Translations under genes and position numbers: made by a program
Assembly: GCA_903845295.1 (NCBI GenBank)
Contig: CAIMWV010000035.1
Span: forward strand, 924-64,923
Length of the DNA stretch: 64,000 bases
Direction of reading: 5' to 3'
From: Candidatus Staskawiczbacteria bacterium
GTDB lineage: Bacteria > Patescibacteriota > Minisyncoccia > Minisyncoccales > Staskawiczbacteraceae
The notes under the pieces: model-generated
Database searches by the model: none
The model's input: only the letters and a program-made list of their open reading frames with translations
Told to the model about the DNA's origin: nothing
Shown: positions 24,912 to 63,543 of the stretch, in pieces
Position numbering within the stretch: position 1 is the stretch's first letter
Layout of the letters: every line of letters begins with the position of its first letter

Positions 24912-25046
24912 ATAACCCCGTTAGAAGTTTGCCCCCGCAAAATTATTATTTTGTATTCCAGGATTTTAATAGCAATCTATGGCGACAAAAGTTTAGAAAA
25001 ACTTTTGTCGCGTCGGCATTTGATTATAAACTTCTAACGGGGTATA
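24912..25046. repeat. Inverted-repeat element E2: 16-bp perfect arms ACCCCGTTAGAAGTTT / AAACTTCTAACGGGGT enclosing about 100 bp, including a perfect 13-bp inner hairpin (GCGACAAAAGTTT / AAACTTTTGTCGC at 24961-24992). It sits in the divergent guaB / pgi intergenic region.
   Basis: Perfect terminal inverted repeats. Core CCCGTTAGA shared with E1 and E3. Confidence 0.55.
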
Positions 25047-30730: not shown

Positions 30731-30744
30731 GGAATTTGCTGCGG

Positions 30745-30820
30745 GACCTGCCTGCCGGCAGGCTTTGATTCTAACCAAGGTACTAGCCTTCAAAGGGCCA
30801 TGTCTACTTCACCCCGCCAA
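30745..30820 (-). pseudogene. Degenerate tandem copy of tRNA-Gln (retains the anticodon arm CCTTCAAAGGGCC and a T-arm-like segment; D-arm replaced; contains an inserted GCCTGCCGGCAGGC palindrome)
   Basis: About 45 nt are near-identical to the intact tRNA-Gln 80 bp away, but the acceptor and D-arm pairing is lost. Confidence 0.5.
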
Positions 30821-30845
30821 ATTTATCTTTACTTTTGAGCAAAGC

Positions 30846-30916
30846 TGCGGGACTTGGATTCGAACCAAGATACTAGCCTTCAAAGGGCCATGTCCTACCA
30901 TTAGACGATCCCGCAG
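30846..30916 (-). tRNA. tRNA-Gln (anticodon TTG)
   Basis: Manual fold: acceptor TGCGGGA/TCCCGCA, D-arm GTCT/GGAC, anticodon stem TGGCC/GGCTA with loop CTTTGAA, T-arm CTTGG-TTCGAAT-CCAAG, discriminator G. Confidence 0.9.
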
Positions 30917-31160
30917 CTTTGCTCAAAAACCTTTTTAATGTGGCACCGCCATGCCAACTTTTGATTTGCTTTTCTCTTTGCCTAGCTTTCCCGTAATCTT
31001 TATATTCTTGAAAATAAATTATGCTCCATAGAGTGCCAAGTTTAGTCGAATATACTTCCCCGCGATTGTGTTTCAACAAACGCTTTTTCGGGTCTAACTT
31101 TGTAATCCCTACATAATGTTTTCCTTTGTCATTTTCAAGAATATAAAGATTACAATTCAT
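30873..31160 (-). CDS. GIY-YIG nuclease superfamily protein (COG2827/YhbQ-like). Start taken at MNCNLYIL. The C-terminal ~15 codons overlap tRNA-Gln on the same strand.
   Basis: GIY-YIG core LYILENDKGKHYVGITKLDPKKRLLKHN...YSTKLGTLWSIIYFQEYKDYGKARQREKQIKSW. Confidence 0.65.
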   Translation of the reverse strand: MNCNLYILENDKGKHYVGITKLDPKKRLLKHNRGEVYSTKLGTLWSIIYFQEYKDYGKARQREKQIKSWHGGATLKRFLSKAAGSSNGRTWPFEG

Positions 31161-31174
31161 CAATTTAAATTTGG

Positions 31175-31201
31175 CGGGGCAAGTTAGACGATCCCGCAAT
31201 A
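31175..31201 (-). repeat. Duplicate of the first 15 nt of tRNA-Gln (TGCGGGATCGTCTAA) lying upstream of the GIY-YIG gene
   Basis: Exact 15-nt match to the tRNA-Gln 5' end followed by divergence. It falls inside the over-extended N-terminus of the ORF-track GIY-YIG ORF. Confidence 0.45.
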
Positions 31202-62385: not shown

Positions 62386-62735
62386 CAGTTCACTATTTTA
62401 ACTTTGTTTAAATCAAAGACCTCCTTTACTTCAATAACTACTGCATTTCTAACCTTATATTCTTTATTTTTCTGAACGCACATCTCAAAATATTTCCCCG
62501 AAGAAAAAATCTCAACATGACCTTTAATTCTAAAATACCCTCCAATAACGCAAATCCGGGGATTTTCTTTAAGGTTTTTAATCGCAGTCACCATTTGGCA
62601 ATCTGCAATCAATAATTTATCATGAAAAAAACCTAACGAAATTACAACATTCGCATTGGGATTTCCGCTCCGCGATGATGTGGCTAAAACTAATTCTTTG
62701 CCTTCTTTAAAATTATTTTTCCAGTTTATTGTCAT
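62385..62735 (-). CDS. Pyridoxamine 5'-phosphate oxidase-like FMN-binding split-barrel family protein
   Basis: 116 aa. Pattern VLATSSRSGNPNANVVISLGF...RICVIGGYFRIKGHVEI is typical of the PNPOx-like fold. Confidence 0.55.
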   Translation of the reverse strand: MTINWKNNFKEGKELVLATSSRSGNPNANVVISLGFFHDKLLIADCQMVTAIKNLKENPRICVIGGYFRIKGHVEIFSSGKYFEMCVQKNKEYKVRNAVVIEVKEVFDLNKVKIVN

Positions 62736-62846
62736 AAAAATTTGTGGGCGCGTGTGGACTCGAAAAGTTGCCCGAAGGCATCGCCTCCTCGCTTCGCTCG
62801 TCGCGATTCAGGGAGTCCCGCTTTGCGGGACGACCTCACCGACTTG

Positions 62847-62953
62847 CCCCGTTAGATATTTTTGTGGGCATTATAGGGGTCGAACCTATGGCCTTTCCGA
62901 TGTGAACGGAACGCTCTACCGCTGAGCTAAATGCCCATAGATATCTAACGGGG
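62847..62953. repeat. Inverted-repeat element E3: 13-bp perfect arms CCCCGTTAGATAT / ATATCTAACGGGG that enclose tRNA-Val
   Basis: Perfect inverted repeat. Same CCCGTTAGA core as E1 and E2. Confidence 0.55.
62865..62936 (-). tRNA. tRNA-Val (anticodon CAC)
   Basis: Acceptor GGGCATT/AATGCCC, D-arm GCTC-AGCGGTA-GAGC, anticodon stem TTCCG/CGGAA with loop TTCACAT, T-arm ATAGG-TTCGACC-CCTAT, discriminator A. Confidence 0.9.
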
Positions 62954-62961
62954 TGAATGAA

Positions 62962-62993
62962 CGGTGCGCTCTAACCAGCTGAGCTACGTGCCC
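62962..62993 (-). pseudogene. tRNA 5' half (acceptor + D-arm + 5' strand of anticodon stem: GGGCACGTAGCTCAGCTGGTTAGAGCGCACCG) with no contiguous 3' half
   Basis: Canonical acceptor and D-arm sequence. The complementary anticodon-stem strand CGGTG occurs only about 150 nt downstream, after the inverted-repeat-flanked tRNA-Val, at 62805-62809. Confidence 0.5.
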
Positions 62994-63069
62994 TTTATCC
63001 TATTAAAGAATTTTACCACTTTTGCAACAAAAAATCACGCTTTGCGCAGCGCGATTCTGGCTGTTTTCC

Positions 63070-63543
63070 CTATTCCTCGGGAAAACCAATAACTTGTATT
63101 TTCGGATATTTTTCTAATTCTTTCTGTTTTTCCGCAACGCGCTCAGAAAGAGTCAGGATGAAAATTTTGTCAAAACCAATGTAGGCAGTTAAGACAAAAA
63201 CATCTCCATTGATGTGGCAAAGCACTGATCCGATGTCTAGCACCGGAATAATTACCGTTGCCACAATTCCACGCGCCGCAAGTAAATCCTGAAGCAGCTC
63301 CTGATTCATTTCCAAGACATCTCTCGCCAATTGGCGCTCTTTAAGACTCTGAGTTTCTCTGCCGAGAGGACCGTGTTTTCCGGTCGGAAAACCTGCATTC
63401 TTGAATGCTTGGTTTATATTGACACCGCCGCCCACGAGAATGACAGTAAAATTGTGTGCAGCAACTTCTCTTAGCCACTCAATTACGTCTGCTCTGTCCA
63501 CCAAATCGCCTGAAATCTTCACCAGCGCTGTTGGTCTGGCCAT
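63070..63543 (-). CDS. Short amino-acid-kinase-fold protein (N-lobe-like; PyrH / isopentenyl-phosphate-kinase-like glycine-rich motifs)
   Basis: ALVKISGDLV...FTVILVGGGVNINQAFK resembles the KxSGE...GGG(N) amino-acid-kinase N-lobe. At 157 aa it is too short for a canonical kinase. Confidence 0.4.
   Translation of the reverse strand: MARPTALVKISGDLVDRADVIEWLREVAAHNFTVILVGGGVNINQAFKNAGFPTGKHGPLGRETQSLKERQLARDVLEMNQELLQDLLAARGIVATVIIPVLDIGSVLCHINGDVFVLTAYIGFDKIFILTLSERVAEKQKELEKYPKIQVIGFPEE

Follow-up and report, generated by a model that had tools for sequence, protein, structure and literature searches.

What becomes of a tRNA gene whose anticodon loop has been opened by a second, complete tRNA gene? 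The question is raised by a locus near one end of a 64,000-nucleotide (nt) stretch of DNA from Candidatus Staskawiczbacteria bacterium (GenBank assembly GCA_903845295.1, contig CAIMWV010000035.1, positions 924 to 64,923), referred to here as the window, with all positions counted from its first base. On the minus strand of this locus, a tRNA 5' half is followed by a 13-base-pair (bp) perfect inverted repeat that encloses a complete tRNA-Val, and then by CAAGT-CGGTG. An earlier inspection of the letters alone (the sequence-only reading) had picked out each of these parts, all of which are present where it had placed them, and had proposed a tRNA interrupted in its anticodon loop by an insertion that is bounded by inverted repeats and carries another tRNA. 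An empty site and orthologous loci now bear out this proposal. We consider it probable, at roughly 85%, that a resident tRNA-Val(CAC) has been inactivated at the DNA level by a mobile cassette carrying a tRNA, and that the cassette is a non-autonomous member of a family found in Patescibacteria. Loci compared with the window are given L numbers.

The resident gene and its cassette

All features of the locus lie on the minus strand. The outer gene begins with GGGCACGTAGCTCAGCTGGTTAGAGCGCACCGTTCA (62993-62958), which resolves into GGGCACG-TA-GCTC-AGCTGGTTA-GAGC-G-CACCG-TTCA, that is, the acceptor 5' strand, the D-arm, the anticodon-stem 5' strand and positions 32-35 of the loop (TTCA); it is canonical and ends within the anticodon loop. 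There follow the cassette terminus TTCA (62957-62954; TGAA in reverse complement), the left arm of the terminal inverted repeat, CCCCGTTAGATAT (62953-62941), and the cargo, a complete tRNA-Val(CAC) (62936-62865) that is called by ARAGORN and scores 70 bits with the Rfam tRNA model RF00005 against a gathering score of 29. The cassette closes with the right arm, ATATCTAACGGGG (62859-62847), which is the perfect complement of the left over its 13 bp, and the terminus CAAG (62846-62843; CTTG in reverse complement). Both termini are end motifs common to the cassette family. In total the cassette measures 115 nt (TTCA, repeat, tRNA-Val(CAC), repeat, CAAG), and its 107-nt core holds no open reading frame (ORF). 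The outer gene resumes with T-CGGTG-AGGTC (62842-62832), which provides T38, the anticodon-stem 3' strand and the variable loop and is identical in two of the loci compared, L129 and L003. A GC-rich block of hairpins, 67 nt long (62831-62765), then occupies the place of the T-stem 5' strand TGTGG, and the gene ends with TTCGAGT-CCACA-CGCGCCC-A (62764-62745), representing the T-loop, the T-stem 3' strand, the acceptor 3' strand and the discriminator A. What had previously been described as a T-loop-like element and a near-match, CGCGCCC, are the T-loop and acceptor 3' strand of this outer tRNA, whose acceptor stem contains a single mismatch (A5/C68). The fold predicted for the 260-nt stretch reaches -103 kcal/mol (z = -5.7 against shuffled sequences).

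Judged by its sequence, the outer gene is the resident tRNA-Val(CAC), struck at C36-A37 of the loop TTCACAT, and not the tRNA-Leu(CAA) that had been derived by joining TT to CAAGT across the cassette. Contig L003 follows the window without a mismatch for 810 nt (100% identity) and then carries no cassette; its outer 5' part runs on as TTCA-CA-TCGGTGAGGTC, and its anticodon arm reads CACCG-TTCA-CA-T-CGGTG-AGGTC, an uninterrupted tRNA-Val(CAC) loop. The contig ends exactly at the block boundary, with the T-arm beyond its end. Filled alleles (L001, L002, L244 and L245) come from sister samples of the same series as this empty allele, and the presence of both alleles at one site supports a recent insertion. 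TTCA and CAAG are the termini of 93 unique cassettes, whatever the host, which makes the loop TT + CAAGT a coincidence. The L003 copy also bears on the suggestion that the 5' half could be a truncated duplicate of an intact tRNA gene. An identical 5' half with an uninterrupted arm does exist, as that suggestion foresaw, but as a population variant of this very locus. The 5' half therefore belongs to the pre-insertion gene and is not a truncated duplicate.

Orthologous loci were gathered through a protein database and contig look-ups; a search of genome contigs with a single neighbouring protein of 157 amino acids (aa) gave no matches. Each of five such loci (L005, L087/88, L089/90, L091 and L092) has one uninterrupted tRNA-Val(CAC) at this position, and in L092 the intact tRNA-Val is directly followed by an orthologue of the PNPOx-like gene found downstream in the window. 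When the cassette was replaced in silico by CA and the block by TGTGG, ARAGORN called a tRNA-Val(CAC); repair of the cassette alone gave no ARAGORN call. The intact resident allele would read ...TTCACATCGGTGAGGTC-TGTGG-TTCGAGT.

Replacement of two bases at the junction

Comparison of the empty site TTCA-CA-T with the filled site TTCA-[TTCA...CAAG]-T reveals that two bases were lost and none duplicated. The same rule applies throughout the family: on whichever strand has TG, a target X-TG-Y becomes X-CTTG[repeat...cargo...repeat]TGAA-Y. It holds in the D-loop of tRNA-Gln (TAA-TG-GTAG), on the antisense strand of tRNA-Val, -Glu, -Ala and -Met loops, and also for hairpin-only mini-versions in the anticodon loops of outer tRNA-Gln shells. 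In the tRNA-Pro(TGG) of L232, TG is on the sense strand and the cassette ends are flipped, with the cargo still co-oriented with its host. Two more familiar kinds of junction were considered and rejected. A target-site duplication of TG or TTCA does not fit, and neither does an IS200/IS605-like insertion 3' of TTCA, since TTCA is missing from the Val(TAC), Glu and Met targets.

Because CA has been replaced by the cassette, no single contiguous excision restores a 7-nt anticodon loop, either at the window locus or across the family. This observation is pertinent to the possibility that outer halves and cassette work together as a single gene, an intron-containing or split tRNA whose pieces would be joined at the RNA level, for example by release through RNase P and RNase Z followed by ligation. 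Such a gene is not without attractions: in the predicted fold the inverted repeat would hold one half of the transcribed tRNA next to the other, the window and L129 agree to a striking degree in their outer halves, and 59 of the 93 host shells among the matches listed are cloverleaf-capable after in-silico repair. The structure of the outer gene speaks against it. In the window, this gene has the 67-nt block instead of a T-stem 5' strand and forms no complete cloverleaf as it stands; in L129 its T-loop is mutated to TCCGAGT; and numerous shells elsewhere are heavily decayed. In intron mode, with introns of up to 400 nt and lowered thresholds, ARAGORN called only the inner tRNA, and no match to the group I core (Intron_gpI) was found in Rfam at E<=10 over 62600-63100. 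The bulge-helix-bulge motif (3-nt bulge, 4-bp helix, 3-nt bulge) is likewise absent, the fold having a 3-nt bulge restricted to the 5' side, followed by 3 bp and an internal loop (2x2). With their defining features missing, a group I intron and a bulge-helix-bulge intron were both rejected. A scan of 25,920 double deletions, in which ARAGORN called weak tRNAs with mismatched T-stems, proved too permissive a test to be informative. The absence of any excision that restores the loop and the decay of the outer genes together argue against splicing at the RNA level. The spliceable tRNA envisaged by the sequence-only reading thus finds no counterpart here, and a functional split gene is very improbable.

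A family of tRNA-carrying cassettes

ORF-less cassettes were sought in a single metagenome scan with the pattern CTTGCCCCG N{15,45} TYGAACC N{45,75} CGGGGTGAA, which itself requires the ends TTCA and CAAG. The T-loop anchor was added because the unanchored control pattern gave random matches (30 in viral contigs, every one of them random and lacking both a tRNA and an extended repeat). At least 120 loci matched, compared with about 4 expected by chance according to our own estimate. Among the matches listed are 93 unique loci, of which 90 are repeat-bounded with a cargo tRNA; the median perfect repeat is 13 bp, and the 93 loci have the same 9-nt ends and follow the same 2-nt replacement rule. 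The occurrence of the same outer 5' half, repeat and ends in the independent assemblies L129 and L174, together with this large number of loci, indicates that the arrangement is not due to chance.

The following figures also refer to the matches listed. Cargos are tRNAs for Val (TAC, CAC or GAC), Ala, Glu, Met, Leu and Ile. Restoring CA renders 59 of the 93 hosts callable by ARAGORN, 42 of these with the same anticodon as the cargo, and places CA at positions 36-37 in 38 hosts and at 34-35 in 5. Odd host labels given by ARAGORN (SeC, Ser, Tyr) reflect repairs that are 2 nt short, and no inspected host differs from its cargo in amino acid. Two cross-isoacceptor cases were found, a Val(TAC) cargo in a Val(CAC) host and an Ala(TGC) cargo in an Ala(CGC) host; a U34 cargo in a C34 host is the direction that wobble decoding should tolerate.

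This uniformity also has to be set against the idea that no mobile element is involved at all, and that a tandem or duplicated tRNA-Val was scrambled by illegitimate recombination or misassembly, leaving an incidental repeat. In their 5' parts the two tRNAs, outer and inner, have about 88% of their sequence in common, which could promote recombination. However, the junction is identical across independent assemblies and samples, the ends, the repeat length and the 2-nt rule recur over the 93 unique loci listed, and elements that encode a GIY-YIG nuclease have the same ends. An origin by scrambling is extremely unlikely.

Family members with a GIY-YIG nuclease

A second family member is present in the window, on the minus strand, in the D-loop of a resident tRNA-Gln (30808-31183). 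Its ends, CTTG-CCCCG...CGGGG-TGAA, are the reverse complement of the TTCA...CAAG ends of the Val cassette. The element contains the ORF of a GIY-YIG nuclease (31160-30873; Pfam GIY-YIG, E=9.5e-13) and, as its cargo, a complete inner tRNA-Gln(TTG) (30915-30844). Of the resident tRNA-Gln there is a 5' fragment upstream (31198-31184) and a decayed 3' fragment (30807-30739) with a sub-threshold tRNA score of 18.5 bits and the GC hairpin CCTGCCGGCAGGCAGG. Within this region (30739-31198), the inner tRNA-Gln is additionally flanked by a 13-nt repeat, TTTTGAGCAAAGC.

Elements of this GIY-YIG/tRNA-Gln type were retrieved by way of the protein and not by the end pattern, and they also carry the cassette termini. 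About 20 loci read ...GTCTAA/CTTG-CCCCGCCAAATTT...AAATTTGG-CGGGG-TGAA/GTAGGAC..., with slashes at the junctions; some 20 genomes have this architecture, and about 20 tRNA-Gln genes have been entered at exactly the same D-loop site. The nuclease ORF has more than 130 homologues, with catalytic-type residues invariant across 30 of them, and in about 35 of the 44 best loci in genome contigs it runs into a tRNA on the same strand. More distant homologues lie within split genes for tRNA-Tyr, -Ala, -Glu and -Ser, the break being in the D-, anticodon or T-loop, and hairpin-only minimal versions with cores of 17-20 nt occur in L010, L022 and L024. The nuclease gave no NCBIfam match, no relative in the PDB by sequence and only a weak match to a PHROG 'endonuclease' family. 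In about half of the GIY-YIG/tRNA-Gln loci the inner and outer tRNAs share lineage-specific stems, unlike the ORF-less family, possibly as a result of gene conversion between adjacent direct repeats.

Database entries for GIY-YIG proteins of 110-118 aa (P0121-P0240) have C-terminal tails (AAGSSNGRT...YLGSNPSPAAL...FGGVK) and N-terminal extensions (RDRLTCPAKFK) that are translated tRNA and repeat; GIY-YIG gene calls are therefore inflated by read-through into tRNA. The window copy of the nuclease gene has a feature of its own, a 23-nt perfect inverted repeat inside the coding sequence (30993-31015 and 31131-31153), in which the stretch encoding NLYILEN and the one encoding FQEYKDY are reverse complements of each other. 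None of 18 homologous loci has it.

Mobility and turnover of the cargo

Related loci show that cassettes have spread between genomes and that cargos have been exchanged. In L129 the outer tRNA agrees with that of the window in 36/36 nt of the 5' part and 30/31 nt of the rest, with the same repeat and the same ends, in flanks of lower identity (78% at the DNA level for rplL and 76-80% for the downstream ORF). Its outer 3' half reads T-CGGTG-AGGTC-TGTGG-TCCGAGT-CCACA-CGCGCCC-A, the end of which is identical to window positions 62745-62764 in 19 of 20 nt, including the A5/C68 mismatch. L129 has a cargo other than that of the window and has kept, from an earlier cargo, the 3' half, together with the right repeat in a second copy. 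This nested relic, a 'Russian doll' (contig Ga0268277_1000042, 1741-1990 of the reverse-complemented locus), runs in the order outer tRNA-Val, cassette with a different cargo, 3' half of the earlier cargo, right repeat and outer 3' half. Its arrangement indicates a probable re-invasion of the cargo followed by deletion between repeat copies, which would account for a shell and repeat that are common to the window and L129 but hold different cargos. A second copy of the right end is found within 130 nt downstream in three more loci (L137, L192 and L229). In L174 and L129, one and the same repeat and cargo sit inside host tRNA-Val genes that differ.

The resident tRNA-Val of L092 has the sequence of the window's cargo without a single difference (100% identity), and those of L087 and L089 are almost the same. 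Within the ORF-less family, the identity of cargo and host is 0.745, compared with 0.738 to other hosts (32 loci); since this is the background level, the cargo is foreign to its host gene, and the idea that a cargo is a copy of its host was rejected.

These relationships might also be read with the roles reversed, the inner tRNA being native and the shell, consisting of the outer halves and repeats, being the mobile part. The resemblance of the inner tRNA-Val to the residents of L092, L087 and L089 would suit this reading, as would the fact that the window and L129 have shell and repeat in common and differ in cargo. Yet L003, in a background that is otherwise the same, has a tRNA of the outer type that runs unbroken through the anticodon arm; the repeat and cargo of L129 recur in a different host in L174; and cargo turnover is accounted for by re-invasion and deletion, of which L129 keeps an intermediate. 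In addition, the outer tRNA begins at the usual distance from a conserved -10 box. The probable extended -10 box TGGTAAAAT (63010-63018, minus strand) would drive the outer 5' part and the cargo tRNA, and boxes resembling TG-n-TAAAAT lie about 10-35 nt upstream of tRNA-Val in L005, L087, L089, L091, L092 and L129, at spacings that are similar across the orthologous loci and not identical. A simple two-hexamer scan found no promoter. A mobile shell around a native inner tRNA is, on this evidence, highly unlikely.

Decay of the outer gene

The sequence-only reading had left open whether the 3' half of the outer tRNA is further interrupted, and it is: the block stands in place of the T-stem 5' strand. 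Its hairpins are TCCCGC-AAA-GCGGGA, TCGC...GAGCGAAGCGAG...GCGA and TGCC-TTCG-GGCA. As L129 holds TGTGG and no block at the same position of the same outer tRNA, the block appears to be a secondary insertion that replaced TGTGG. Comparable GC hairpins recur within other dead tRNA shells.

It had also been proposed that this block could be a leader, riboswitch or small RNA, and in particular a cis-regulatory leader of the PNPOx-like gene. It is indeed rich in hairpins and lies directly upstream of that gene (62735-62385, minus strand). For the block, Rfam, searched over 62600-63100, returned no match at the gathering score and only chance-level matches at E<=10, the PNPOx orthologue of L092 follows an intact tRNA-Val with no block, and the same outer tRNA occurs without the block in L129. 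Moreover, the block sits in a tRNA remnant, and similar hairpins litter other dead shells. There is hardly any likelihood that it serves as a leader.

Several of the small hairpins are repeated. The 12-mer GAGCGAAGCGAG (62787-62798) occurs 12 times in 2.2 Mb of mostly Patescibacteria DNA, where about 0.3 occurrences are expected; it is found in 11 other loci, among them L015, L028, L067, L077, L089, L135, L203 and L207. Most often it makes up the loop or the middle part of a longer hairpin, and it may be a small repeated hairpin element. The GC hairpin CCTGCC-GGCA-GGCAGG (30747-30762) and close variants of it are found in the decayed shells of L139, L141, L192, L195 and L196, and hairpins of this type often stand in place of the D-arm. 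Hairpins of the form (T/C)CCCGC-nnnn-GCGGG(A/G) are present in anticodon loops and T-arms of other shells.

A proposed mechanism

What is observed is that cassettes enter the DNA at a defined dinucleotide, that the site exists both filled and empty, that cassettes have spread from genome to genome, that their cargo is matched and co-oriented, and that the shell decays. The mechanism behind this is a proposal. The GIY-YIG nuclease of about 90 aa encoded by the autonomous-looking members may make 2-nt staggered cuts where loops of tRNA genes are exposed, and may mobilise the ORF-less cassettes in trans. At the present locus, the 115-nt cassette would have replaced C36-A37 in the anticodon loop TTCACAT. 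The co-oriented cargo would be transcribed from the resident promoter and freed by ordinary tRNA end-processing; as the presumed functional copy, it would supply valine decoding and make the insertion harmless. Selection would eliminate any insertion with a cargo that is not matched to the destroyed tRNA or does not point the same way. The outer halves would be a dead shell, now apparently decaying, whose T-stem 5' strand was lost to the 67-nt block.

A number of points weigh against the inactivation of the resident gene by a mobile cassette. The empty-site evidence consists of 13 nt at a contig end. No target-site duplication flanks the element, TG/CA being lost instead, and we know of no enzyme family that yields the observed 2-nt replacement. 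The cargo carries an intact target loop and would confer no immunity to re-cutting, which is unusual for homing elements, and the re-invaded cargo of L129 argues against immunity of the filled allele. In the outer shell the window and L129 agree at 98-100%, against a divergence of about 22% between the two genomes elsewhere; our reading is that this conservation reflects recent independent insertions into a conserved functional gene, the alternative being selection on the shell. Finally, we infer the expression and processing of the cargo, and it is by shared termini and co-occurrence that the GIY-YIG nuclease, whose activity is predicted, is tentatively linked to the ORF-less cassettes.

A broader proposal is that the cassettes make up an unrecognised class of bacterial selfish DNA, bounded by inverted repeats and mobilised by a minimal GIY-YIG nuclease in a 'break-and-replace' manner, the element taking the place of a TG/CA dinucleotide in the loop of a tRNA gene. 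Such elements would destroy essential single-copy tRNA genes while providing a foreign replacement, and repeated invasion with later decay of the old shell would drive horizontal tRNA turnover across Patescibacteria. We advance this tentatively, at slightly less than even odds.

Relation to known elements

One parallel is with free-standing GIY-YIG homing endonuclease genes in tRNA gene clusters, such as phage T4 SegB (PMC2330249). As described there, GIY-YIG homing enzymes such as SegB make 2-nt 3' overhangs, and such overhangs, along with the conserved catalytic-type residues, would fit the loss of two bases. Genes of the SegB type also resemble the cassettes in that a small GIY-YIG gene is tied to tRNA genes and in having a fixed insertion site with presence/absence polymorphism (PMC2330249). 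Unlike the cassettes, SegB lies outside tRNA genes and has neither terminal inverted repeats nor a nested replacement copy (PMC2330249). Most cassettes, including the Val cassette, differ from SegB-type elements in having no ORF, and the same cassette ends are found in many tRNA species, for which homology-dependent homing alone would be insufficient. With homing elements in general the cassettes share a fixed site with filled and empty alleles; the Val cassette encodes no endonuclease, and the Gln element encodes a GIY-YIG domain.

The cassettes can also be compared with miniature inverted-repeat transposable elements (MITEs) and small palindromic elements, among them the Rickettsia palindromic elements and the GC clusters of yeast mitochondria. 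Like these, they are short, ORF-less and bounded by inverted repeats, they have larger coding relatives with shared ends, and they occur in hairpin-only versions. Repeats held in common with a protein-coding relative, as expected of MITEs, are found here (13 bp in the Val cassette and CTTG-CCCCG/CGGGG-TGAA in the GIY-YIG elements). Unlike MITEs, the cassettes make no target-site duplication and lose two target bases, they carry an entire essential gene that matches the target, and the partner protein is a minimal GIY-YIG domain and not a known transposase.

Phages and integrative elements that integrate into tRNA genes likewise aim at a tRNA gene and compensate for their own damage, by restoring its 3' end. 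In contrast to these elements, which have an integrase, a short att segment and direct repeats and extend over tens of kilobases, the cassette has none of these features and nests a whole foreign tRNA in the anticodon loop or D-loop; integrase and direct att repeats are absent from the 115-nt element, which is ORF-less and ends in inverted repeats. Archaeal tRNA introns and split tRNAs are similar in being flanked by helices, in residing in anticodon, D- or T-loops and in having spread among tRNA genes, as in the intron transposition of the Thermoproteales. Unlike archaeal introns, which are removed by a splicing endonuclease that leaves an intact tRNA, the cassette cannot be excised in a way that restores the loop, its host is a bacterium and the outer gene decays. 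Bacterial group I introns also occupy the anticodon loop of bacterial tRNA genes, and some of their relatives encode a GIY-YIG nuclease; the cassette, unlike them, is at 115 nt too short and has a tRNA inside instead of a ribozyme. In each of these comparisons, the cassette lacks at least one defining feature of the known system. No description of tRNA-in-tRNA or GIY-YIG/tRNA cassettes in Patescibacteria was found in the full-text literature searched, which covers few subscription journals, and an existing account is possible. We regard the cassette as selfish DNA of the kind that aims at tRNA genes and makes good the harm it does; there is a substantial chance that the chemistry of its mobilisation is new.

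Implications

If this is true, an element can safely strike an essential and usually single-copy gene by carrying the spare part, a strategy that would stand apart both from introns, which splice out, and from integrases, which rebuild the gene end. It would also explain horizontal exchange of tRNA genes in the ultra-small Patescibacteria, the cargo in the window being identical to the resident tRNA of another lineage. The nuclease of about 90 aa may possess a highly precise insertion chemistry aimed at the loops of tRNA genes. For annotation, it follows that tRNA half-genes and a clutter of GC-rich hairpins build up beside tRNAs in Patescibacteria genomes, and that many 'GIY-YIG proteins' have C-terminal tails of translated tRNA.

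Other features of the window

A terminator hairpin (63036-63048, minus strand) belongs to the upstream gene and marks the upstream limit of the tRNA transcription unit. This gene (63070-63543) encodes the 157-aa, amino-acid-kinase-like neighbour protein and lies between rplL and tRNA-Val in the window and in most relatives. The relatives of this gene point to a Patescibacteria organism of the Parcubacteria type, and bL12 likewise marks it as a bacterium. L129 is without it, its tRNA locus coming directly after rplL. The PNPOx gene is present at the locus only in the window and L092.

A third inverted-repeat element occupies an intergenic position (24915-25043). Rfam gave only chance-level matches for it, even at E<=10. 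It contains no tRNA, and its flanks are ATAA/TATA, not CTTG/TGAA; its arm, ACCCCGTTAGAAGTTT, is related to that of the cassettes and perfect over 16 bp, and it encloses a 97-nt cargo with a hairpin.

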